This document shows positions 1,417-16,897 of a stretch of 64,000 bases of DNA, piece by piece. The stretch lies in the NCBI GenBank assembly GCA_000091205.1, contig AP006497.2; one strand, given 5' to 3'. The stretch is from Cyanidioschyzon merolae (Eukaryota). The notes below the pieces were generated by a model that did not search any database, was not told where the DNA came from, and was given only the letters and a program-made list of their open reading frames with translations. Each line of letters begins with the position of its first letter. Position 1 is the stretch's first letter. A program made the position numbers and the translations under genes.

Positions 1417-2530
1417 CAAATTAGGCGAAAAGGTGAGGTGTCTGGTTCGTGTACCCGATCGCATGGATAGACATCCACGGATGCCTATTGAAGCACCTGT
1501 AGGAATACTCCTACGAATACCTGCGCGGATACGGCTATGGACACAGGCATGTTCATGGGTGGCAATGGTTGAAGTGCACGATTCGTGCTGGAAACTGCCT
1601 GCAACCTGTCACGTTCACAGTGTGTTGTTGCAACTTGTTTCGCATGCGTCGCCAATGCCGCGTCCCGAGTTTTCTTTTTGTAAAGAACCGCTTTCACCGA
1701 ATACGGTTGGATGCGAATCTTGATGCTCTGGTGGATCATACGCCAGAGACTAGTGGGACCGCTGCAACTGTATATATTCTCAGGACGGCGCTGTTCGTCG
1801 ATCGCGTTTCCAGACACCACACCCGAGCAGTCCATATGATCAGTTCGCATCTATGGGTTCGCCCCGGAGACGCAACGCGGGAGACGTCTTTGCACCCGAT
1901 CCCATGGGTGAATCTGCATCCACCGAGAAAACCGAGTTGAGCGCTTACCTCGTACCGTTTAGGCGATCGCTTTTGAGATCCGATGCTAGCGGGGGTCGGG
2001 GTATCCGCTGACCTTTCTACGACTGGATGCCAGCGCTATGCAGCCTGAACCTCGTCGGAGCTGCTGCTTCGATCGCCATATGAAAACGTGAGATTCGATT
2101 CGTGCAAAGCCAACAAAGAGTCCATATGCAGAATACAAACTTTTCCTTCAGCAAAAGCAGCCTCTTGCAAGTAAGGATCTACGCGAGGTTTGTGGTGTAG
2201 GACCCGTACCTCATTCGCGCTGGGGCGTCTAGAGTGCTGGGGGTCTCCGAGGTGCCCCCGCTGCACGCTCCTGCCCTGCCGCCTGCGCTAAACAACACCT
2301 TTCATATACTGGGCACTCGCGCTCTCTCTACAGGTCCTTCGCTTCATTCATCAGCAAATATCCGCCTGAACGTTTGCCGGCACTGCAACACCAGACTTGG
2401 ATAACTGCATTCAATGAAAGAGTGACGCTCTTTTTCCAACGTAGAGCGCCACCAACCTACAACCGCGTCCTAACCTGCAGCTGTTGCAAGACGCCCTAAC
2501 GAGAGCATCTTCTGTACCGAACAATTTCCA

Positions 2531-2951
2531 TACCAGTGCTGCTCCCTAAGCGCTATCCTAACCCAGCGCACAGTGTCTTGAACGGTTTTGTGGTACGCAC
2601 TCGGAAACAGTTGGCGTACCAGTGCTGCTCCCTAAGCGCTACCCTAACCCAGCGCACAGTGTCGTTAACGGTTTTGTGGTACGCACTCGGAAACAGTTGG
2701 CGTACCAGTACTGCTCCCTAAGCGCTACCCTAACCCAGCGCACAGTGTCGTTAACGGTTTTGTGGTACGCACTCGGAAACAGTTGGCGTACCAGTACTGC
2801 TCCCTAAGCGCTACCCTAACCCAGCGCACAGTGTCGTTAACGGTTTTGTGGTACGTACTCGGAAACAGTTGGCGTACCAGTACTGCTCCCTAAGCGCTAT
2901 CCTAACCCAGCGCACAGTGTTGTTAACGGTTTTGTGGTACGTACTCGGAAA
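2531..2951. repeat. 86-bp minisatellite, about 4.9 tandem copies, each containing an inverted repeat GGTACGC…(15 nt)…GCGTACC and a CCCTAACCC motif
   Basis: Direct reading shows the unit 'taccagtRctgctccctaagcgctaYcctaacccagcgcacagtgtYKtKaacggttttgtggtacgYactcggaaacagttggcg' repeating at 2531, 2617, 2703, 2789 and 2875. The two ORF-track entries 2536..2721 and 2622..2807 give identical peptides offset by exactly 86 bp. The period is not a multiple of 3, so the repeat is non-coding. Confidence 0.9.
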
Positions 2952-3042
2952 CGCTCCAGTGGCCGCGTCAGCGTTCGCTGTCCACCTGTGTGCCAGCCCG
3001 TTCAACGAGTGCAGTTCTCTTTTTGAAGATAGAGGCTTCTTT

Positions 3043-5046
3043 ATGCTTCTATTCCAGTCTACACTGGTTCGAGTTTATGTTGTCCGGAGCCCGCCTCGCA
3101 ACCGACAACTGTGTCTCCGCGCTGACTCGAGTCAAGGACGACACCTCCTGGGAGCACGACCTGCACAGCAGACGACGACGACGACAACAACCACTACAAC
3201 TACAACTGCTGCGGCGTCGAGACCGATAACCAAGCTAACAGTATTGCGAGTACAGCAGCGTTTCTGGGAGCGCCATGGAAGCGCTCCAGCGCTGGCTTGT
3301 TCGCAGAGCCCGTTGCAGCCGCACCTGGGCGTCGGTGCAGAGGCTTGCACCCGGCAACGAATCTCAGACCTCAAGCCGAGCGTCGGTGAGCGCCTCCATT
3401 CAGCCTATTATACACGATTGCGGCAAGCTGTGGCGGTAGTTAGAAACTGGGTTTGTGTTGCAAGCGCGCTTCTCTTTGTCTACCTGAGTACCAGCGACCA
3501 GGTGGCCCTGGCGGCTGCCTCACTCGCCAATGGCATGCCTCAAGACCGTCTGGCTCTGGCAACGAGTACGCCCGTTCCAGATCGCTACCGAATTCTTTGG
3601 GAGCAGGCACTGGACATCATCACGAACCTTCACTACCAACCCGGTCAACATATCCATGCAGCCTCGTTAACCATGCCTTCGCACTTGCCGCCTACGCGTG
3701 CGTCCACGATCCCATGGGGATGCTCTCTGGGAACACGTGCCTCGACCTACGATGCCATTCGGATCCGACTCAGTGAATTGAATGATCCCTACTCACGTTT
3801 CCTGGAGCCGGATGAATTTGAGGCGGAACTGAATCCTTACCGGCGAGCTCGGAAGCTCAGCGGGGTCGGCATCATACCGGAGCGCAGTCCAAAAGGCCAC
3901 GGCACGCTGCGCGTTATAGCCGTTATTCCCGAGTCACCGGCTGAGGAGGCCGGAATCAACCCCGGCGATGAACTCGTTATGATTGACGATATTGTCGTCG
4001 AGCCTTCACCTTTGAACCCGATTCCTGTGACCCCCGATGAAGCGTTGGCGTTGCTGCGCGGCCCAGCGGGTACGCGGGTTCGTCTCACTGTGCGACAAAC
4101 GACAAACTCGTTGTCGTACGCTGATGCATCGCTGCAAGTAGCGTCAGCGTCCACAGCGCCGACCTCTATGATGCGTACATATACATTAACGCGGAGACCG
4201 CTTCTGGTAGCTCCGGCTGTCTACGGCCTTGTCGCCGCGGAGCCCACTTTCGGTTACATTCGCCTCCATACCTTCAACGCCGAAGCGACACGTATCGTCT
4301 TCGAGGCTCTGAACGCATTCAAGAATTCTAGCGATCGTTCGGCAGCGGCTGGTGTTATCCTAGACCTGCGCAACTGCCGAGGTGGCGTCTTCCAGGAAGC
4401 ACTGGTGATTGCTTCGATGTTCATCGCAAACCCCGATGCCGTACTCGTCTACACCGTCGACAGTCGGGGTATCGAGCGCGCACACCGGGTGCGTGACCAG
4501 TGGAACGGTTGGCCTGAAGCTCCTGCTGCCGCTGCTCGTACTCCTCGTACTCCTCCTGAGACGCTCGGGAGCGCGGCGTCGGCCCGGCATCCGCTGTACA
4601 ATGGCCCACTGGTGGTGCTCGTCAATGGTGCCTCAGCTTCCAGTAGCGAAGTGCTTGCGATAGCCTTGCGCGATCACGGACGAGCAGTGCTGTTGGGCAT
4701 GCCAACTTTTGGGAAAGCCCGCATCCAACACTACTTCCCGCTTTTGGACGGCTCGGCGATCGCGCTCACTGTCGGGGAGTTTCTCGGCCCGCAGCACGAA
4801 CGCCTCGCGGACCACGTCGGCTTAGTGCCGCAGGTCTCCTGCAACGCTGCACCCCGGAACTTTGCGCTCCTAGAGAGACACACGCCACCAGATGCCTGCA
4901 TCGCAGAGGCAGCTCAGCTGCTAAGCGAAGAACCCACGGGGTCATCGGCTACAGAGCCGGTGCCGGTCGGTGGCTCCGTGCGGTCTGCGTTCACATCCCG
5001 AAGCAGGTCCACTGAAACGACACTGTTGCCTCGGATCCAAACCTGA
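3043..5046 (+). CDS. ctpA: C-terminal processing peptidase (S41A, CtpA-like) with PDZ domain and a plastid/thylakoid-lumen-type N-terminal presequence
   Basis: PDZ segment 'GVGIIPERSPKGHGTLRVIAVIPESPAEEAGINPGDELVMID'. S41 core 'AAGVILDLRNCRGGVFQEAL'. Catalytic Ser/Lys blocks 'LVVLVNGASASSSEVLAIAL' and 'GMPTFGKARIQ' (near nt 4624-4725). The ORF-track start at 2848 lies inside the 86-bp minisatellite, so I prefer the first Met outside the repeat, at 3043. The N-terminus is R/S/T-rich and includes Thr12, followed by the hydrophobic stretch 'WVCVASALLFVYL' and an AxA site 'ALAAAS'. Confidence 0.8.
   Translation: MLLFQSTLVRVYVVRSPPRNRQLCLRADSSQGRHLLGARPAQQTTTTTTTTTTTTAAASRPITKLTVLRVQQRFWERHGSAPALACSQSPLQPHLGVGAEACTRQRISDLKPSVGERLHSAYYTRLRQAVAVVRNWVCVASALLFVYLSTSDQVALAAASLANGMPQDRLALATSTPVPDRYRILWEQALDIITNLHYQPGQHIHAASLTMPSHLPPTRASTIPWGCSLGTRASTYDAIRIRLSELNDPYSRFLEPDEFEAELNPYRRARKLSGVGIIPERSPKGHGTLRVIAVIPESPAEEAGINPGDELVMIDDIVVEPSPLNPIPVTPDEALALLRGPAGTRVRLTVRQTTNSLSYADASLQVASASTAPTSMMRTYTLTRRPLLVAPAVYGLVAAEPTFGYIRLHTFNAEATRIVFEALNAFKNSSDRSAAAGVILDLRNCRGGVFQEALVIASMFIANPDAVLVYTVDSRGIERAHRVRDQWNGWPEAPAAAARTPRTPPETLGSAASARHPLYNGPLVVLVNGASASSSEVLAIALRDHGRAVLLGMPTFGKARIQHYFPLLDGSAIALTVGEFLGPQHERLADHVGLVPQVSCNAAPRNFALLERHTPPDACIAEAAQLLSEEPTGSSATEPVPVGGSVRSAFTSRSRSTETTLLPRIQT
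3172..3207 (+). repeat. (ACG)4(ACA/ACC/ACT)8 trinucleotide run encoding Thr12 inside the CtpA presequence
   Basis: Direct reading: acgacgacgacgacaacaaccactacaactacaact, in frame with the CDS, giving 'QQTTTTTTTTTTTTAAAS'. Confidence 0.9.
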
Positions 5047-6410
5047 CCGAGTTGCGCACCCGTTCGGCAGTCTAGAGCATCCGACAGCACCAGGTTCGCG
5101 TAGTGATCAAAACCGCTGAGTTTTCCGCGCACGCACCTGTTCGCGTTCAGGTACACTTGGACGGAATGAAACAGCAACGCTTCGAGTTCCGCAGTATCGA
5201 CCTCGTCTTTTGCCATAAACCAAGCTGATCAACAACCAACACGACGCTGGTCAAATGCTTGGACGCACGCGGGTTTCCCACAGCCTGCCAAGACGCCGTC
5301 GCAGGGTACCGGCAAACGCACTTGTGTGTATGTTGCTGAGTTGCGCGACGTTTCTGTGCATATCCGAAGCAGGAGCAGCAGTAGTTCCAGCCCAGGAAGC
5401 CTTTCGTTTCGACCTTTCAGGAACGTGTAGTGCGCACGTCGTTTTGACGAAAAGTCACCTTCCCTGCGATAACCGACGACTCAACCTGGACTGCAGGGTA
5501 AAGTCGTTGCAGCGCGTTCGGGTGTACGCGCGAGCTCCACGAGTCGCCAGTGAGTGCCTCGGCATACCTCGACCTCGACGGTGTTCGTTGAACCCAGAAC
5601 ACGAATTCGGGAGCTTGGTTGCCTCAAGGCGAAAGCGAGCGACAGGCACTTCTCGGAGTCTGTGGGTGTTTCTGGTGCCTATCCCAGTCTGTGGCCGGAG
5701 TGTGTCCGTTCGTCCAGTTCAAGCGGAGGTGTACCGAGTGTCTTGAGCAGCGTGCGGACGTCTGGGTGTCACGGTGGCTCTCTGTGGTGCGTCCTGCCTT
5801 CACGGGCGTGATTCAGACTGCACCCGCGAGCATGCGCTACTCACTCGTGCTGCAAACGCCCGCCACCTGCGCAGTGTTGCAGGCGAGAGACAGCGGAACC
5901 TACCGCTATGCGACTTGGCGTTAGGTGCGTAGGTATATGCGTTTATGCGACGGAAGCAACGTTGTTGTCGAGTACCTGCCCGCGGGTTATCTGGGACCGT
6001 GTTGAGATTCACGTTTACGCATTCTCTATATATGCTGCCTTTAGATGAAGCTGCCGCCTAGCCTAGCCAAGCGCATCTCTTCCTAGGCACCAGAACCCGC
6101 TCTGGTCCAAGATATGCACGCGTATCCATTCCCGGCTTTTTGGTGACGCTCAGGGAGTATTCCTTGTCCGGCTGGGTATGCCACTACTTGATCAGCGCTT
6201 TCAAAAGCAGATGCCAGCCCCGCGCACCAGCGCGTCCAGCGTTTACATTACAGGCTTGCACACCGCCGCTACCCGCTGGTATCATACGCCGGTTTGTCTT
6301 CATCGTGAAGCTCTTCGTTCCACGACTTGCTCTACCAGAGTCTCCGATGCCGCGGTAGCATGTCTGGGAATGCTCTACCTCCGGCAAACGCACACACACT
6401 CACTCCTTCA

Positions 6411-6431
6411 CAACAACAACAACAACAACCA
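6411..6431. repeat. (AAC)7 microsatellite in the convergent 3' intergenic region
   Basis: Direct reading 'cacaacaacaacaacaacaacc'. It lies between the stops of the convergent CtpA gene (+) and TPP-enzyme gene (−). Confidence 0.85.
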
Positions 6432-6462
6432 ATGGGAATCGAACAAGGCACAGATGCACGCC

Positions 6463-9400
6463 TCAGGTGCCGCTTTCAAGTGCATCCAATCCACGAACGA
6501 CGTGAACGGACATGTGGACTTTGGTGACGCACGAGTTCGCCAACAGGTGCACTGCTCGCCAAACAACATCCGGCTCGATGTCGCCCAGGTGTTGTACTGG
6601 TCGCCGCAACGCCAGCGCATGCGTATGAGAGAGCAGCAGCGACGGGTGCTGCTGCAGCTCCGAACGGATCCTCTGCAGCGCCATGAGTCGACAAGTGTGG
6701 CACGAATGATCGCCCTGGTCAGCAACGTGTCCATCTTGGGGCGTCTGCTGCTCAGGCGAGGCATCGACGGTATCGCGATCCGCATAGAGTTGGAAGTAGC
6801 CGCGGTAGAGGTGTGCATCCAGGGCCGTGCGAAATGCCTCATCCTCAATGGCTTCCGCGACGCTCAACAGACCCACTACGGCTGCGGGTTGAGAGCCGGT
6901 GATCAGATTCGGCTCTCGATAGTACTTGTGGCGATTGGCAATCACATTTTCGTTGAAAACGGGCGCCCGTGAAATAGCTGTCGCTGTGAAATGCGAAAAC
7001 TCAGCGATGCCGTAGAAGAACAGGGGGTTCGTCGTTCCCGTCTGCAGGTACAGATCATTGAGTACACGTGACCACGGCAGGCCTGCTGGTATTTTCTTGG
7101 AGCCAGCATTGGTACCCTGAACCCCGGTAGGCAATTGCACGCCGGGCGCCTCGTATGATACGTAAAAGTCGGGTACAGCACCCTGGGGCATGCCCAGGAA
7201 CGCGACACTCGAGAGGTACCGTCCACGCACCGTGCGGTAGTACTCGGCTGGTGGCGCCTCAGGCGCTTCCGCTGGGCTTTGCTGCTGATTGCTGGTCCCG
7301 TCGGACGTCGCTGGAGACGTTGCTGCTGGCAGTTCACCGGTCAGCGTACAATACGCAGTCCCGTGAACGATGATGGCTTCACCCATGGTCTCCGGCGGAC
7401 GACCGTCCACGGTGCCCAGCTCAAAACCCGCAATATAGTCTTGGGAATCGATTGGAATCCGCGACAGCGCCTCTACGGACGGTATCTTACCCTCGATGAG
7501 GTTCCGCACGGAGCCCAGCGCTCGTGCTCGGCTGCCTGGCGGTTGTGGTGCATGTGGATGCAGGTTGTAGACCTTGACCGGGCTCTGGTTGGAATCCGGA
7601 CTGGACTCCAGCGGCTCTACCAGGAGTTTCTGGGAGGCGATGCAACCGAAAAAGTCGCCACTGCGCAGTAGCTGCAAAAGATATTCGCGATCCTCAGTTG
7701 ACAACGCGGCGCTCGCGGCAACATCCTCCGTTTCGCCCGCGGATTCAGCGTCCATCCGCTGACGCTGTCGATGCACCATGATAAAGCTGTCGAAAACCTG
7801 GCGGGCAATCCGCATCTCTTCGGGTGAGATGAGTCCGTCGTTGTCCAGGTCAAAGATACTCAACAGCTCCATGTCGCTAGCAGTGAGCGCCTCGGTAGGC
7901 AGGTATTCGGCAATCAGACGCAATACTGGTACCCGGTTGCTTTCCACGGTGGCGTACTCGGCCTTGAGCTCAGGGCTCTCGACCAGATCGATGAGGAACG
8001 AGTGCCGGGCATCGCCTCGTTGCTGTGCAGCAAGAGCGGACTCCAACGCCGCCGGTGCTTCCGCTGGTCGCTGGACGCGGGCGAAGCCCATACGGTACGC
8101 CTGGGCGAGTCGCTGCAAGTCTGGAAGGATGATTTCGTCGCCAGCGACGCCAGTATTCCCAAAGCGTACCCGTCCCATAACGCCGTTGCGGAGGACAATC
8201 ACGACAAGGTTATCGAGGCCCTGCTGCAGGGCAGTTCCAAGTTCCTGTTCAGCCATTTCGAAACCGCCATCGCCAGTGATGAGGTAGACGACACCCTCGC
8301 TTTTGCGTCTCTTCAGCGAGACGCCCATCGAAACGGCAGCCGGAACCGCGTACCCCATACTGCCCATGTTGATGCTGGAAAGCAGACGCGTTCCCTGCCC
8401 ATCGAAACAGAGGCAGAGACCTGCCCAGATGGTAACATCTCCGATATCCACAACCACAACATCGTCTGGACCAAGTTTCGCGGACAAGGCGGTGAGCAGG
8501 TGGCGCGGATGACAGAAGCCGCGTACCTCATCATCGCCCTCGTCAGCGGTATCGTCTGTGTCCAGCATGGAGCGCCTGCCAGTGACCATAGCGTGTGGCG
8601 TTTTGCTCAAAACTGCAGCACGACGCGGCGATGAAGGCAATGAAGCTTGACGCTCACGCCATTCACCGTCTAAAAAGTACTTCCAGAGCCGGCTCGAGTA
8701 GTCCCGGGCCTGTTGAGGGCCCGGCGGCAGCATGCGCTTTGATTGCATCTCCCGCACGCTCGCTGTTAGTGCGCTCAGCAGGGCCTCCAATTCAGGATCG
8801 ATAAGCATACACTCCACATGGTAGTAGACCTGGAGGCGCGTAGCCAGTGTATCGTCTACACCGAATACTCGGACCTGCTGTTGACCAGTAGAATCGAGCA
8901 CGACTGGATCGCAACGATCGACGCCTATCGCCAGAATACACTCGGCAGTGCTGACGAGGGCCCGCGGCGCTGCCATGCCGGGGTTCCCAAAGATCCCGTC
9001 AACACCGAGTACCAGCGGGTGATGCTCATCGACGGCACCCTTGGCGTCCAGTGTGGTAATCACCGGCGCACAGAGCGTTTCTGCGAGTTTCAAAATCGTA
9101 CTCGAGCAACGAGCCTGTGCTGCACGCAACCCGCACAGAATGACGACGCGATGTCCCAGCAGAAGGCGTCCAGCGTGCTCCACGGAAACGGCAGCGCAGC
9201 GCGGTACCTCGGCAATATGAAAGGGAAGGCGAGCCAGGGCGCTCTCGTCTGAGGGCGACGTCTGCACATCTACTGGTATCGCCAGATGTGCTGCTGTGCT
9301 TCGCTCCAGGGCGAAGCGGATAGCCGAGTCCAGCAGAGAAAGGAAGCGATCGGCAGTCATGGGGGCCTTGGCAAACTGGACGCCTGCTCCGTGCATCAGT

Positions 9401-9795
9401 TGTGCTGTTCGGGTGTCCTGGAAGCCCTCGTGTCCGATGTTACTCCGCGACACGAGGCCGCTGAGTAGGAGCACCGGCACAGAGTCCGCAAGCGCATCCA
9501 CCATGCCGCACACGGTGTAGGCGGCACCCGGACCCGAGGTGGTAACGCACACACCCAGCTTCCGATAATACTTGGCGTATGCAGATGCGGCAAACGGTGC
9601 GGCAGTTTCGTTTCGAACGAGAACCCAGTGCAGACGTGGATGCTGCACAATCGCTGTGATAAGAGGACTCGCAGCTGCTCCGTGTCCACCGAACACGAGC
9701 TCCACGTTTGCCGCCGCAAGCCGGTCTGCAATCAGGTTCGCAATGGTGTACGTGCTACCACGACTCGCTGGCATCTTGGAGGTGGTACTATTCAA
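6463..9795 (-). CDS. Thiamine-diphosphate enzyme (acetolactate-synthase/ILVB-like, all three TPP-enzyme domains) fused to a canonical EF-hand and a about 400-aa uncharacterised C-terminal domain (1110 aa)
   Basis: Single 3333-nt ORF. N-terminal TPP_enzyme_N 'ELVFGGHGAAASPLITAI…GVCVTTSGPGAAYTVCGMVDALADSVPVLLLSG'. Central domain 'RVVILCGLRA…PVITTLDAKGAVDEHHPLVLG'. C-terminal TPP-binding fold with 'GSMGYAVPAAVSMG…VVYLITGDGGFEM…NLVVIVLRNGVMG'. EF-hand loop 'DLDNDGLISPEE' at aa about 648-660 (nt about 7816-7854) has D1, D3, D5, G6, I8 and E12 in place. Residues about 700-1110 match no family I recognise. Confidence 0.8.
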   Translation of the reverse strand: MNSTTSKMPASRGSTYTIANLIADRLAAANVELVFGGHGAAASPLITAIVQHPRLHWVLVRNETAAPFAASAYAKYYRKLGVCVTTSGPGAAYTVCGMVDALADSVPVLLLSGLVSRSNIGHEGFQDTRTAQLMHGAGVQFAKAPMTADRFLSLLDSAIRFALERSTAAHLAIPVDVQTSPSDESALARLPFHIAEVPRCAAVSVEHAGRLLLGHRVVILCGLRAAQARCSSTILKLAETLCAPVITTLDAKGAVDEHHPLVLGVDGIFGNPGMAAPRALVSTAECILAIGVDRCDPVVLDSTGQQQVRVFGVDDTLATRLQVYYHVECMLIDPELEALLSALTASVREMQSKRMLPPGPQQARDYSSRLWKYFLDGEWRERQASLPSSPRRAAVLSKTPHAMVTGRRSMLDTDDTADEGDDEVRGFCHPRHLLTALSAKLGPDDVVVVDIGDVTIWAGLCLCFDGQGTRLLSSINMGSMGYAVPAAVSMGVSLKRRKSEGVVYLITGDGGFEMAEQELGTALQQGLDNLVVIVLRNGVMGRVRFGNTGVAGDEIILPDLQRLAQAYRMGFARVQRPAEAPAALESALAAQQRGDARHSFLIDLVESPELKAEYATVESNRVPVLRLIAEYLPTEALTASDMELLSIFDLDNDGLISPEEMRIARQVFDSFIMVHRQRQRMDAESAGETEDVAASAALSTEDREYLLQLLRSGDFFGCIASQKLLVEPLESSPDSNQSPVKVYNLHPHAPQPPGSRARALGSVRNLIEGKIPSVEALSRIPIDSQDYIAGFELGTVDGRPPETMGEAIIVHGTAYCTLTGELPAATSPATSDGTSNQQQSPAEAPEAPPAEYYRTVRGRYLSSVAFLGMPQGAVPDFYVSYEAPGVQLPTGVQGTNAGSKKIPAGLPWSRVLNDLYLQTGTTNPLFFYGIAEFSHFTATAISRAPVFNENVIANRHKYYREPNLITGSQPAAVVGLLSVAEAIEDEAFRTALDAHLYRGYFQLYADRDTVDASPEQQTPQDGHVADQGDHSCHTCRLMALQRIRSELQQHPSLLLSHTHALALRRPVQHLGDIEPDVVWRAVHLLANSCVTKVHMSVHVVRGLDALESGT

Positions 9796-10966
9796 TGCTT
9801 CAGCACGCGCCCAGTCAAGTTCTTGGTGCTGGTCGAGCGTCTGTCTCTGGAGTTACCGCTTGTGTGAGGCGTTACGGGTAGCCTGCGGTGGCAACTTGAT
9901 CGAACCGTGCGCTCTCTGAGCAAAGCCTCCACTGGATACCTTCGGGCAACGCGAGCTGAGCGAAATGCAGCCACAAACTATCGTCTACGAACTTTGAAGC
10001 GACTCTGAGATAGGACCTAGCGACGCAGTTCACCCTGAAAAGTCGATGTTCGGTTGCGAGCAGGCAGAGCAGCTTGTTCAGTCTGATACGTCAGCAACTG
10101 CCTCTCTGGAATACACCTTTTATTGGCAGCGCTCCCTGATTATAAACACTGTTTGCAATCACCTCTCCAGATTTATGGGATGCACTCGTCACACTGGTTC
10201 TGTGGAGTCGCGTTCAGGCCGGTGCGCCAACAAGTGCCTCCCTGGACCAAACCGGTTATTGAGGGTGCTCGCCGATGAAACACACCGTTCGCAGTCGCTT
10301 TTCCAGATCTATAAGATGCACTTGTCAAACCTGTTCCCTCGAGTCGCGTTTCGCGCTGTGGCACTCCCTCGAGGAGGCAAGTGGTTGCGTAGGACACGAG
10401 GCCGCCTGCCGGTCGTTGCAACGTCTGGTACCCCGAGCGCGATACGATGCGTCTCGCGTGGCTCTGGAGCCGTGTGGAGCACCCGCCACCCAGCGACTGT
10501 GAGGCCGAAAGCCCAGCGATGCAGATCATCAGGAGTGCCGCTCAACCGGGATCATCGAACTTCATCTGATTCCGCTTCAGCTCAGTTAACTCCAATGAAT
10601 TCCAGTTTATCTCTTCTGACCTCATTCCATCTCAAATGATCCCACTCGTTGGGATAGCAAGGACGCTTGGTAATTTTGCAGGGTACGCATCAGGAATATA
10701 AGAGCTATCATGAATACTCATCACGAGAGGCACTTGGCGCTGGGAGAGTCCCACGAACGAATGAAAGGATCACCGGAGGCAAGTATAGGTCATGGCGAGT
10801 GGTCAGCAGAACGCTCGGGAGAGATCGTGAGGCGTCATCACGACTGCCTGCCCGGAAACCGATACGCGTCGTGCAGTTGGGAATCCCTGTTTGCTCTACG
10901 CGATGCAACGTCATGGTTATCCATCGAGGGTGGCGCTCGGGCTGGTCTACTGGAGCGCGTGCACGC

Positions 10967-10985
10967 ACGCACACACACACACACT
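10967..10985. repeat. (CA)n dinucleotide microsatellite, about 9 units
   Basis: Direct reading 'gcacgcacgcacacacacacacacac'. Confidence 0.8.
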
Positions 10986-11304
10986 TCGCAGTTTACCGCC
11001 TGATGATCATCGCCCAGGTACACCGTCAACCATCTACGTAGCGTGCACTTGCATCCGATTTCTTTCGTTTCCATACCCCATGACGCCTTTTCGAATGCAT
11101 TCTGCATCGACAACGACGAGCACACGAGTGACTGCAGCTGACGTTTCTCGCTTCCTATAACCCGAAACGCTCGGCAACGACGCATCTCTCGAGAGCATCG
11201 CCCGCAGCCTCGGAGCATCGCAGAGGACCTGATTGCATGCAACGATGCTAGTCCATAAACCGATGGAAAAGAATTGACCCTGTGTATGGGAGCATCTGCA
11301 GCTT

Positions 11305-11740: not shown

Positions 11741-13345
11741 ATGCTGACGTCAGCAGCTGACGACTTGTCGTCGGGATATCGGGAGGTAAGGGCGGAGCTG
11801 GGCGAAGCCTTTCGGAGTGGGGCAACACGCTCGCTTCGTTGGCGTGCAGCGCAGCTGGAAGCCCTGAAGCAGGCGCTAGTGGAACAGGAGCGCGCAATCA
11901 TCGCGGCATTAGCTGATGATCTCGGGAAGAGTGCTGAAGAGAGTCAGCTTACCGAGCTACAACCCGCACTCCAGGAACTAGCGTTGGCGCTGGGGAACCT
12001 GAAGCTCTGGGCTGGGCCCCGCACGGTAGAACCCTGCTTAGCACCCAAGTATCTGGCGCCGTGGTTCTGGTTGCAACGTGTTTGGCGCGCGGTGCTTCCT
12101 CGAGTACTGGGCGGTGGCAACCCGCCGGTGGCAAGTTACGGCGGCGTAGCACTGGCGACGATACTGGAGCGTCGCTGGGTCGTTCCTGAACCACTGGGCG
12201 TGGTGCTGATCATCACAGCCTGGAACTATCCTCTACTGCTTGCGATTTGGCATATGACAAGTGCTATCGCCGCTGGGAACTGTGTCGTCTTGAAACCAAG
12301 TGAACGTGCTCCTGCAACAGCAAAACTGCTGGCAGAGCTGGTGCGCACCTATCTCGATGCTCGCTGCATCCGAGTCGTGCTGGGCGATGCCAGCACTGTT
12401 CGGCGTCTGCTTCATCTGGATACCGAGTGTCCGGCGGATGTTGCGTTCCGCGTTTGGGCACAGCAGCGCCCTTTTGATGCGGTGCATTTCACGGGCGGCT
12501 GGAGGATTGGGCGTGAAATCGCACGCGCTTGTGCGGCCTACCTGATACCGTGCACGCTCGAACTGGGCGGTAAGAATCCGCTTGTGGTGGACTGTGCATC
12601 GCTGTCCGAGCGAGACTTGGCTCGGGTTGCCCGAACGACCGCATGGGCCAAGTTACTGAACGTGGGTCAGACGTGCATCGCCCCGGATTATGTGGTTCTA
12701 TGCGGTGCAGACCGGGCACAGGAGGCGTTCTTCATAGAAGAGATGTGGAAATCGATTGAAGCATTCTACGGGAGGCCAGTGGAAAACAGCACGACCTTCC
12801 CACGGATCGTGAGCAAGGCACATACCGCCCGTCTGGCGGACCTGCTCCAACAAAGCCGTGGTGAGGTTGTGTTCGGTGGAACCCACCGAGAGAATGACTG
12901 CTTTTTCACGCCGACCATTGTGCGCAATGTGACTCTGGATGATGCGCTGATGGCGGAGGAGATTTTCGGGCCGATACTGGTTGTTCTGCAGCCGTGTGCT
13001 GGTACCGAACAAGCGCTCGAGGTGATCGGGAGTCTACCATCTCCGCTGGTAGTCTATCTAATGTCTCGTGACGCTGCTGTGGTGCAGCGTTTTGAACGGG
13101 CATCCACCTCTGGATCGCTTGTCGTGAATGATCTGCTGGGTCAGGTAATCTCGCCGGGTCTTCCGTTTGGCGGGGTCGGCGCTTCTGGATACGGCAAGTC
13201 CAAAGGTCAAGCGGGGTTCGATGCGTTCTCGAACCTCAAGAGTGTCCTCTGCAAACCGATATGGATAGAGCGAATAGCGAGTGATCGCTACCATCCACTA
13301 ACCGCTACCAAGATCAGTCGTTTTCGTCGCTTAATCGCGCTCTGA
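11741..13345 (+). CDS. Aldehyde dehydrogenase, ALDH3/fatty-aldehyde-dehydrogenase type (534 aa)
   Basis: Catalytic Glu motif 'TLELGGKNPLVV' (nt about 12560-12580). Catalytic Cys motif 'NVGQTCIAPDYVV' (nt about 12665-12690). Rossmann region 'GGWRIGREIARA'. C-terminal 'EEIFGPIL' fits the ALDH superfamily. Confidence 0.9.
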   Translation: MLTSAADDLSSGYREVRAELGEAFRSGATRSLRWRAAQLEALKQALVEQERAIIAALADDLGKSAEESQLTELQPALQELALALGNLKLWAGPRTVEPCLAPKYLAPWFWLQRVWRAVLPRVLGGGNPPVASYGGVALATILERRWVVPEPLGVVLIITAWNYPLLLAIWHMTSAIAAGNCVVLKPSERAPATAKLLAELVRTYLDARCIRVVLGDASTVRRLLHLDTECPADVAFRVWAQQRPFDAVHFTGGWRIGREIARACAAYLIPCTLELGGKNPLVVDCASLSERDLARVARTTAWAKLLNVGQTCIAPDYVVLCGADRAQEAFFIEEMWKSIEAFYGRPVENSTTFPRIVSKAHTARLADLLQQSRGEVVFGGTHRENDCFFTPTIVRNVTLDDALMAEEIFGPILVVLQPCAGTEQALEVIGSLPSPLVVYLMSRDAAVVQRFERASTSGSLVVNDLLGQVISPGLPFGGVGASGYGKSKGQAGFDAFSNLKSVLCKPIWIERIASDRYHPLTATKISRFRRLIAL

Positions 13346-15567: not shown

Positions 15568-15895
15568 GCATCACTATCGTTCGTCTTCGTAAGTCTTTTA
15601 TTGGATATAAAGGCATCAGATCAGGCGTGCGCAGGTGATTACTGTACATAACGGCCATATGTGATGCTGGTGCGCGCACGCGTTTTTCCAGCAGCGCTCC
15701 TTCGCCGCCGTTTGACGATACCGGCCGCTGACGGGCGCGACACGTGTCCACAAGCGCTCAGGGAGCGCGTGTCCATACGACCTGGCGGTGCCGATTTACA
15801 GGGCGCGCGTTCATGCTGCGGCAGGTGAGAGCGCTTTAGAACAATCCTCGTGTGCTGCGTCCGAGGTCCTGCGTTCGAGTCGTGGACAGCGTGCG

Positions 15896-16897
15896 TCAAT
15901 GACAGAGTGCTACACACTAACACGGCGCGTAGTCCGTGCACACAACCATGAAAACGACGCCTGGGTGATCGTTCGTGGTGGTGTCTATGACGTGACGGGG
16001 TTCTTGCGGTACCACCCGGGCGGGCGGGACGTCCTCTTGAAGCGTTTGGGCGAGGACGTCACCAGTGTTATGAACGGCGAGCTCAAAGGTGGTCACGAGC
16101 ACTCCAGTGCGGCGTATAAAATTCTGCAGCAGTACTACGTAGGCCCGCTGGCTGACGCGGACGCTTCTCCCGCAGAGGCAGCCGCCCTAGACGGCACGCT
16201 GGACGAGCACGGTAGACCGCTGGTCGACTTTAGTAAGCCGCTTCTGGACCAGGTTGGTAAGCTTGGGGATAAGTATCACCGCTGGGTGCATTCTTTTCCG
16301 ACCAGCGACCATCATGTGGCCCTTTTCGCGAACCCGACGCTCGAGTCACTGACAAAGTGTCCCTGGTACGTGCCGCTAGTGTTCTGGATTCCGATCTTTG
16401 TCTGCGGGCTGTGGTTTGTGTTTGCGCGCCTCGGTTGCTCGTTTGTTCGAGATTTCCTACCGTTCACGACGTTTGGCTATATATTTTGGATGTTCTTCGA
16501 ATATCTGTTACATCGATATGTATTTCACGTGCGGACCGGGACGTACTGGTCGAATATCTTTCATTTTCTTATTCATGGACATCACCACCTGGCGCCGATG
16601 GATTATGATCGACTCGTGTTTCCACCGATTCCCGCAGCGCTCGTCTCGATGCCGGTATGGCTGACTGCACCTCGAGTGTTTGGTCTCGTGCGCGGACTGT
16701 GCTTCCTTTTTGGATTCGGTGTTGGGTACCTTCAGTACGACATGACACACTTTCTGGTGCATTATGGAACGCTACGTACGGGGTTCTTAGCCGCTCAGAA
16801 ACGGCGGCACATGATACACCATTTCAAAGCACCAGGGGCGAATTTTGGTATCAGTGTTCCCGTGCTGGACATTGTGTTCGGGACATTGCACCGGTAA
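15896..16897 (+). CDS. Fatty-acid 2-hydroxylase-like (FA2H/Scs7-type) with an N-terminal cytochrome b5 domain
   Basis: Cyt-b5 heme motif 'VYDVTGFLRYHPGGRDVL' (nt about 16005-16030). Membrane His-box motifs of the fatty-acid hydroxylase superfamily: 'HGHHHLAP' (nt about 16575), 'HFLVHYG', 'HMIHHF'. The ORF track starts at 15788, but the first Met before the b5 domain is at 15896 ('MTECYTL'). Confidence 0.8.
   Translation, partial: SMTECYTLTRRVVRAHNHENDAWVIVRGGVYDVTGFLRYHPGGRDVLLKRLGEDVTSVMNGELKGGHEHSSAAYKILQQYYVGPLADADASPAEAAALDGTLDEHGRPLVDFSKPLLDQVGKLGDKYHRWVHSFPTSDHHVALFANPTLESLTKCPWYVPLVFWIPIFVCGLWFVFARLGCSFVRDFLPFTTFGYIFWMFFEYLLHRYVFHVRTGTYWSNIFHFLIHGHHHLAPMDYDRLVFPPIPAALVSMPVWLTAPRVFGLVRGLCFLFGFGVGYLQYDMTHFLVHYGTLRTGFLAAQKRRHMIHHFKAPGANFGISVPVLDIVFGTLHR

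Follow-up and report, generated by a model that had tools for sequence, protein, structure and literature searches.

In the classical acetoin operons of bacteria, alsS and alsD (budB and budA) encode an acetolactate synthase (ALS) and an alpha-acetolactate decarboxylase (ALDC), which lead from pyruvate through alpha-acetolactate to acetoin. Alpha-acetolactate is labile and decays to diacetyl. To produce acetoin and 2,3-butanediol, metabolic engineers join the two enzymes artificially, and such engineered fusions were the only ones that our literature search found; no report of a natural ALS-ALDC fusion, or of the decarboxylase-like family described below, was found. Here, we analyzed 64,000 nucleotides of the red alga Cyanidioschyzon merolae (contig AP006497.2 of assembly GCA_000091205.1; "the window" means this whole stretch). 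One gene on its minus strand, at 6463..9774, encodes a protein with a thiamine diphosphate (ThDP) enzyme in its first part, an EF-hand-like lobe in the middle and, at its C-terminus, a domain predicted to have the ALDC fold. By analogy with the bacterial pair, we think it fairly probable that the protein is a fused alsS/alsD-like pair, a three-module and probably cytosolic enzyme that would convert pyruvate to acetolactate and then to acetoin.

Gene and Domain Organization

The minus strand of the window holds at 6463..9795 a single uninterrupted open reading frame (ORF) of 1110 codons, counted from the TTG at 9795 in an ORF listing made with the bacterial code. The first ATG is at 9774, and the product of 1103 amino acids (aa) that begins there is identical to C. 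merolae 10D BAM81666.1 / XP_005537702.1. The record lies on a 902,900-bp chromosome, and the gene is a nuclear gene of C. merolae. Its database name is "similar to acetohydroxy acid synthase large subunit". The main features are as follows, in the order of the protein.

6463..9774, minus strand: coding sequence, first ATG to stop, 1103 aa; exact match to BAM81666.1, same start point in the orthologues
9412..9747, minus strand: ThDP enzyme N-terminal (pyrimidine-binding) domain; PF02776, 99.6 bits against a cut-off of 26.8, and alignment to ALS and PoxB
8917..9156, minus strand: ThDP enzyme central domain; PF00205, 53.9 bits against a cut-off of 30.4
8455..8784, minus strand: family-specific insert of ~110 aa between the central and C-terminal ThDP domains; unaligned in the matches from the Protein Data Bank (PDB)
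8026..8448, minus strand: ThDP enzyme C-terminal (diphosphate/Mg-binding) domain; PF02775, 74.2 bits against a cut-off of 21.9
7738..7974, minus strand: EF-hand-like lobe, a degenerate helix-loop-helix (PELKAEYAT..VPVLRLIAEY) plus a canonical helix-loop-helix; AlphaFold2 (AF2) model and Foldseek
7816..7851, minus strand: canonical 12-residue EF-hand loop DLDNDGLISPEE, aa 642-653; PS00018, conserved
7699..7737, minus strand: variable acidic linker, predicted to be disordered; 5-30% identity among orthologues, low pLDDT
7618..7698, minus strand: conserved two-helix connector DREYLLQLLRSGDFF...KLLVEPL; in all fusion proteins, with invariant L, R, G and P
6481..7566, minus strand: domain of predicted ALDC fold, with three lineage-specific low-complexity loop insertions

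The initial annotation of this gene had proposed an ALS-type ThDP enzyme in the first ~600 aa of a single ORF, followed by an EF-hand loop and by a C-terminal region of no recognised family, and had held the architecture to be unreported. The ThDP enzyme, the single gene and the lack of precedent are all borne out: no literature on an EF-hand module in enzymes of the ALS/pyruvate oxidase (POX) type or in ALDC was found. The loop and the C-terminal region were described correctly in part.

The ThDP-Enzyme Module

The alignments identify the first ~600 aa as an ALS/POX-type ThDP enzyme whose catalytic Glu and Mg-ThDP motif are intact. The Pfam domains TPP_enzyme_N (aa 17-128), TPP_enzyme_M (aa 214-293) and TPP_enzyme_C (aa 450-590) occur in the order N-M-C, and all are above the gathering cut-offs. 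The catalytic Glu is in an RNE motif at 9607-9609, which aligns with RHEQ/RHEE of the solved ALS and PoxB structures. The Mg-ThDP motif has its GDGG from 8272 and its N at 8185-8187, and GDGGF...LRNG aligns with GDGGF...WNDG/FNNS of the same structures. The ~110-aa insert, which the solved ALS and POX structures lack, contains the motif W-x-Y/F-F-L-x-G-x-W-R. It is 49-61% identical among orthologues, and its motif is also present in P0029 and P0034, two of the more distant fusion proteins (P and L numbers are our own handles for proteins and loci).

The best NCBIfam match of the window protein is biosynthetic ALS, and its top NCBIfam families all have pyruvate as donor substrate. The score was 188 bits with TIGR00118, the large subunit of biosynthetic acetohydroxy-acid synthase (AHAS), against a cut-off of 538; it was 168 and 137 bits with the AlsS models NF006378 and TIGR02418, against cut-offs of 510 and 551. 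The protein is below the cut-offs of all AHAS equivalogs. Its database name and this best match would suit the alga's biosynthetic AHAS with a species-specific tail, a reading that we regard as very improbable given the shortfall from the TIGR00118 cut-off, the lack of an N-terminal transit-peptide extension and a tail that is a conserved enzyme-fold domain. Because red algae encode the large subunit of biosynthetic ALS in the plastid (PMC3518814), the gene is misnamed; the database name is misleading, and the alga's AHAS for branched-chain amino acids is not this protein. A housekeeping AHAS was rejected on the failed cut-offs and on the plastid location of ilvB in red algae. The ThDP fold begins right at the N-terminus in every full-length orthologue, and since no transit peptide is apparent, the C. 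merolae protein is probably located in the cytosol.

The nearest non-fusion relatives of the algal ThDP module, P0019-P0024, are 27-28% identical to it. P0019, P0020, P0021 and P0024 carry a Rieske [2Fe-2S] domain (PF00355) on a POX-like ThDP enzyme, which is itself an unusual architecture; the best NCBIfam match of P0019 is pyruvate oxidase, at 386 bits and under its cut-off. Another ThDP-enzyme fusion, P0027 (946 aa), combines TPP N/M/C with Glu/Leu/Phe/Val dehydrogenase domains (PF02812, PF00208).

The C-Terminal Domain and Its Family

The ORF does run on after the EF loop, as the initial annotation had said, for ~440 residues that have no Pfam or NCBIfam match and are 55-75% identical among orthologues. 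The region is not without a family. A word-index search with the C-terminal half returned no match, its own cluster included, and one with the domain alignment gave a single protein; when 1.84 billion representatives were scanned exhaustively by HMMER, 65 relatives emerged. About 55 of these are stand-alone proteins of 255-310 aa, likewise without a Pfam or NCBIfam match, and they include the Legionella londiniensis hypothetical protein WP_058529649.1. The algal C-domain aligns end to end with stand-alone proteins of ~265 aa. Across the family, G-E, one Pro, one Tyr and H-x-H...H are invariant, at the following places in the window.

7378-7380, minus strand: invariant Glu
6961-6963, minus strand: invariant Pro
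6805-6807, minus strand: invariant Tyr
6625-6627, 6619-6621 and 6547-6549, minus strand: the three invariant His

Fusion proteins were found as well. The C-domain of P0034, a complete fusion of 987 aa, comes after TPP N/M/C, a 'DPELKAEYA' junction and an EF-like loop. Five more sequences, P0029, P0031, P0032, P0067 and P0095, are fragmentary but of this fused design, and in P0084 TPP_C is joined to the C-domain without an EF loop. Three other Cyanidiales-type genomes share the architecture, and it extends to distant environmental eukaryotes.

Two of the distant sequences have peculiarities. In L013, the fusion gene of a distant eukaryotic homologue is called as two overlapping pieces (1587-3323 and 3274-4881). 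Residues ~33-60 of P0032, in the region of the GDG motif, form an odd stretch (VQSKRLGPRHGSGWPPQEAISSPAPADPAAVT) that resembles a translated intron.

The AF2 model of the C-domain, built from the family alignment, had a pLDDT of 82.9 and a pTM of 0.83; its three low-confidence stretches are the lineage-specific loop insertions. When this model was compared with the PDB by Foldseek, the 13 best matches were all ALDC (E 7e-7 to 8e-5, probability 1.00), with target-normalised template-modelling (TM) scores of 0.64-0.77. The modelled C-domain is a divergent ALDC fold, which does not bear out the earlier view of a region of no recognised family. Because the domain has this fold, the main story becomes the fusion of two consecutive pathway enzymes and not a carboligase with an unexplained appendage.

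At the level of sequence, PF03306 is the sole Pfam family matched by more than one member of the C-domain family (2 of 33, weakly, E 0.02). The family profile gave only chance matches, to RhoD, among PDB sequences, so that sequence alone gives no link to ALDC. We also aligned the family by hhalign with a small, three-sequence ALDC profile, and treat the result as supportive and not as proof. The register is sensible, with FELGT on FGIGT and GEAIIVHGTAY on GELIGFDGEFY (alignment probability 23%). It places the invariant G-E of the family on the Glu of the ALDC D-G-E strand, the catalytic Glu65 in Brevibacillus numbering. In the AF2 model, two successive beta-strands carry the three invariant His (H-x-H-x23-H). 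The three His are a putative metal site. A C-terminal tail that is a non-functional extension was rejected, as the invariant Glu and His are common to the bacterial homologues. The safest wording is that the C-domain has a predicted ALDC fold, is predicted to work like ALDC, and belongs to a separate, undescribed family outside PF03306.

Gene Linkage in Bacteria

We investigated the genomic context of the stand-alone members. Six contexts were informative, and one further contig was too short to judge. A single-protein scan for related loci gave Legionella londiniensis only. An AlsS gene adjoins the stand-alone ALDC-like gene in five of the six informative contexts.

L005 (Legionella londiniensis), 5163-7001: 612-aa ThDP enzyme; 7001-7822: ALDC-like gene; overlapping stop and start
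L006: truncated ORF over the stop, which is the N-terminus of an AlsS-like protein
L007: ThDP gene 66 nt downstream of the ALDC-like gene
L008: split ThDP gene ending at the start codon of the ALDC-like gene
L010/L011: ThDP gene and ALDC-like gene with only a small DoxX gene between them

The partners in L005, L007 and L010 scored 761, 780 and 781 bits as AlsS, against the NCBIfam curated cut-off of 510. For L008, one half of the gene scored 299 bits and the other 419, each with a different, complementary half of the AlsS model. In these five cases, the stand-alone protein holds the place that alsD/budA has in classical acetoin operons. The partnership makes acetolactate the likely substrate of the stand-alone family, and with the bacterial pair adjacent in this way, the most fitting view of the algal protein is that of a Rosetta-stone fusion joining an alsS/alsD-type pair.

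Some details of these loci may be added. The AlsS gene of L008 is in two ORFs, 3302-3994 (TPP_N) and 4029-5000 (TPP_M/C), for which a frameshift, a pseudogene or an assembly error is possible. The gene between the partners encodes a DoxX-family membrane protein (L010 2301-2651, L011 2246-2596) and overlaps the start of the ALDC-like gene. In L015 (1-2100 and 2097-3026) and L016, P0047, which has a signal-peptide or lipoprotein-type N-terminus, is translationally coupled to a histone-deacetylase-family gene (PF00850). Hydrophobic signal-like N-termini were also seen in P0046, P0053, P0064, P0066, P0076, P0077, P0086, P0089 and P0092. One member with such an N-terminus is from the eukaryote Heterolobosea sp. 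BB2.

Several observations weigh against the conversion of pyruvate to acetoin. The scores of the ThDP module put it equally far from ALS, AlsS, pyruvate oxidase and PoxB (168-188 bits, where the cut-offs are 510-790), and its identity to Legionella AlsS is only 23%. Because of this equidistance, only the partner domain points to carboligation and not to oxidation. The C-domain of the window protein is matched by neither PF03306 nor the NCBIfam ALDC models, and the hhalign probability quoted above is low. The column of ALDC Arg145, the substrate-binding Arg of the Brevibacillus enzyme, holds Thr/Ala (a T-A-I motif) in the C-domain family, which has no invariant Arg. The His spacing is x23 in the C-domain versus x10 in ALDC, and a low-confidence extension of the alignment puts the C-domain His off the columns of the ALDC His triad. 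The exported family member in L015 adjoins a histone-deacetylase-type gene, and no TPP gene is on its 3.1-kb contig. In the literature, we found no account of acetoin production by Cyanidiales, and nothing relevant on ALS in C. merolae or on ALDC in Legionella.

Most of these observations would also suit a coupled two-enzyme fusion with other chemistry. Its product might derive from a different 2-hydroxy- or 2-oxo-acid, or the ThDP part might be a pyruvate oxidase or decarboxylase. The ALDC-fold domain might then have a different metal-dependent activity. For example, it might decarboxylate some other beta-keto acid, catalyze an isomerisation, or hydrolyse an ester, as is reported for the fold relative PTD012. 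However, the partner in five of the six bacterial contexts is an AlsS equivalog well above the curated cut-off. We therefore consider other chemistry rather unlikely, and retain the acetoin pathway as the favoured reading.

The EF-Hand-like Lobe and the Connector

PROSITE PS00018 matches the window protein at aa 642-654. This match is expected by chance 0.003 times per protein, and 45 of 20,000 shuffles gave one. The loop residues are D1, D3, D5, G6, I8, S9 and E12, so that ligand positions 1, 3, 5, 9 and 12 and Gly6 are all canonical. All four orthologues keep the pattern at this position, as do eight of ten fusion proteins, whose identity in the EF segment is only ~35%. The EF-hand loop that the initial annotation had placed after the ThDP part is upheld by this match and its conservation; its end is at 7851 and not at 7854, and the Pfam EF-hand models stay below their cut-offs.

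For aa 595-730, an AF2 model computed from ten fusion proteins had a pLDDT of ~80 over model residues 21-80. In model numbering, the helices are at 7-15, 23-30, 38-47 and 57-85, and the connector helices at 99-111 and 113-125. The canonical loop lies between helices 38-47 and 57-85, and a short beta-bridge pairs residues 54-55 with 21-22 of the preceding, non-canonical helix-loop-helix. The modelled geometry is that of an EF-hand pair with one degenerate site. EF-hands normally function in pairs.

It may instead be that the segment is a structural linker, a relic helix-loop-helix that binds no Ca2+ in a constitutive enzyme, with calcium an artefact of the motif match. All Pfam EF-hand models are under their gathering cut-offs (17-22 bits against 25-30, the best 21.9 against 25.9), only one loop is canonical, and the best Foldseek match of the lobe model, at E 0.26, is not significant. 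P0084 has no such loop, and in P0029 and P0034 it has degenerated, with Gln in position 12 of the former and His in position 3 of the latter. On the other side, a pattern so rare by chance is kept at one site among such divergent fusion proteins, the ligand positions of the window protein are canonical, the modelled helix-loop-helix has the typical loop beta-bridge to a partner loop, and the top 50 Foldseek neighbours are nearly all EF-hand proteins (calcineurin B, calmodulin, calpain domain VI, MCFD2, troponin C, sorcin). We regard the linker as a serious alternative and lean only somewhat away from it. The motif and the model together suggest that a single functional EF-hand loop is probably present, with putative Ca2+ binding. 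Because the lobe directly follows the C-terminal helix of the ThDP domain, Ca2+-dependent coupling or activity is possible, and control of the enzyme by Ca2+ would be plausible. The "calcium-gated C-C bond chemistry" of the initial annotation is speculation.

Orthologues and Locus

The initial annotation had suggested a search for the same architecture in other Cyanidiales, and we found it in three orthologues with 58-72% identity to the C. merolae protein. P0016 (1108 aa, 72%) is present too in assembly GCA_041825655.1. P0017 (Cyanidiococcus yangmingshanensis F1559_000360, 72%) has a model of 934 aa, and P0018 (1064 aa) is 58% identical. Identity among the orthologues was 63-92% in the TPP domains and of a similar order in the linker/EF segment (69-85%) and the C-terminal blocks (55-75%), and the variation was confined to two short low-complexity stretches. 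The deposited model of P0017 is without ~90 first and ~90 last residues that are present in the other orthologues, and is probably a mis-modelled gene; its UniRef name is 'EF-hand domain-containing protein'.

We considered whether the long ORF might be an artefact of annotation or assembly, that is, a read-through of two adjacent genes or an ORF with a hidden intron. The bacterial code used to call the ORFs of the window, the short ends of the P0017 model and the two pieces called in L013 would agree with it. However, P0016 and P0018, the two full-length orthologues that were looked up, each consist of one unbroken ORF at a syntenic locus and are conserved across the junctions, and P0034 is complete as the only ORF of its 3.45-kb contig. 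Almost all C. merolae genes are without introns, which also counts against an artefact. We find this explanation hardly credible, and a two-gene read-through was rejected on the conserved uninterrupted ORFs in other lineages.

The following genes are neighbours in the window.

82-1416: SelO
2848-5046: PDZ/S41 peptidase
11741-13345: aldehyde dehydrogenase
15788-16897: cytochrome-b5/fatty-acid hydroxylase fusion

The same four neighbours flank P0016, and P0018 has the S41 peptidase and SelO in common with them. As LSM, peptidase S41 and SelO genes are neighbours common to the P0016 and P0018 loci and the window, the locus is syntenic across Cyanidiales-type genomes. Upstream of the gene, at ~10930-10990, the ORF translations read THTHTH / CVCVCV on both strands, which indicates a short intergenic (AC/GT)n microsatellite.

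Proposed Reaction and Its Meaning

In the pathway that we favour, module 1 (aa 10-600) would form hydroxyethyl-ThDP from pyruvate and ligate it to a second pyruvate, giving alpha-acetolactate. Module 2 (aa ~600-720) would be the EF-hand-like lobe, with one canonical Ca2+-type loop and then the conserved helical connector. In module 3 (aa ~737-1098), a metal bound by the three His, together with the invariant Glu, may decarboxylate acetolactate to acetoin. The fusion could keep labile acetolactate on one polypeptide, and such channelling would reduce its escape and the formation of diacetyl. Through the EF-hand lobe, Ca2+ could set the activity, the coupling or the docking of the domains. A neutral overflow of pyruvate in an acidophile is our speculation on the physiological role.

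The gene itself is already known and annotated, under a wrong name. The recognition of its C-terminal domain as an ALDC fold, the divergent decarboxylase-like family beside alsS in bacteria, the natural fusion of that family to an ALS-like enzyme in eukaryotes and the EF-hand lobe between the modules appear to be new. If the favoured reading is true, "hypothetical proteins" without a Pfam or NCBIfam model would gain a testable function, as a second and highly divergent lineage of acetolactate decarboxylases, and a thermo-acidophile would provide a natural single-chain two-enzyme acetoin module. It would also be a rare case of a central-carbon ThDP enzyme with a motif of the Ca2+-sensor type, by which pyruvate overflow is possibly wired to calcium signalling.

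A bolder proposal is a Ca2+-switched bifunctional 'acetoin synthase' in several eukaryotic lineages, the Cyanidiales red algae and unidentified environmental eukaryotes, with a second acetolactate decarboxylase family replacing AlsD in Legionella and other bacteria. We offer it tentatively and would not bet on it; if true, it would mean a calcium-controlled neutral overflow of pyruvate in an extreme acidophile.

Comparison with Known Systems

The C-domain was compared with the ALDC structures 4BT2, 1XV2, 6INB, 5XNE, 5YHO and 6J92 of the PDB and with Pfam PF03306. The N-terminal pattern ...G-F-x-x-G/A-S/T...G-E-x-x-x-x-x-G-x-x-Y of ALDC aligns with the C-domain (hhalign, 23% probability), and the modelled C-domain has a three-His signature on adjacent beta-strands, a putative metal site. 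However, the identity is 8-14% with no significant sequence-profile match, and the algal domain differs in its His spacing, in the missing equivalent of Arg145 and in its three low-complexity loop insertions.

Human PTD012 / C11orf54 (PDB 1XCR) is a Zn-containing protein with an ALDC-related fold. It is a clearly weaker match to the C-domain than ALDC, and no sequence similarity between them was detected. We know of no link between PTD012 and ThDP enzymes.

Compared with EF-hands (PS00018; PF00036, PF13202, PF13499), the algal 12-residue loop is likewise flanked by helices, with a modelled loop beta-bridge. The algal lobe differs in that it has one canonical loop and a degenerate partner, falls below the Pfam cut-offs, and is an inter-domain linker of a metabolic enzyme.

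Another close system is the AlsS/AlsD (BudB/BudA) pair. Both join a ThDP enzyme from the ALS/POX superfamily to a protein of ALDC fold, predicted in the algal case, and the bacterial relatives of the algal C-domain adjoin true AlsS genes as alsD adjoins alsS. The algal protein differs from the pair in being one eukaryotic polypeptide with an EF-hand-like lobe between its modules. With 168 bits against 510, its ThDP module falls short of an AlsS equivalog. Its decarboxylase-like module is too divergent for PF03306; unlike AlsD, it is marked by an invariant H-x-H-x23-H of its own, and the ALDC Arg is missing.

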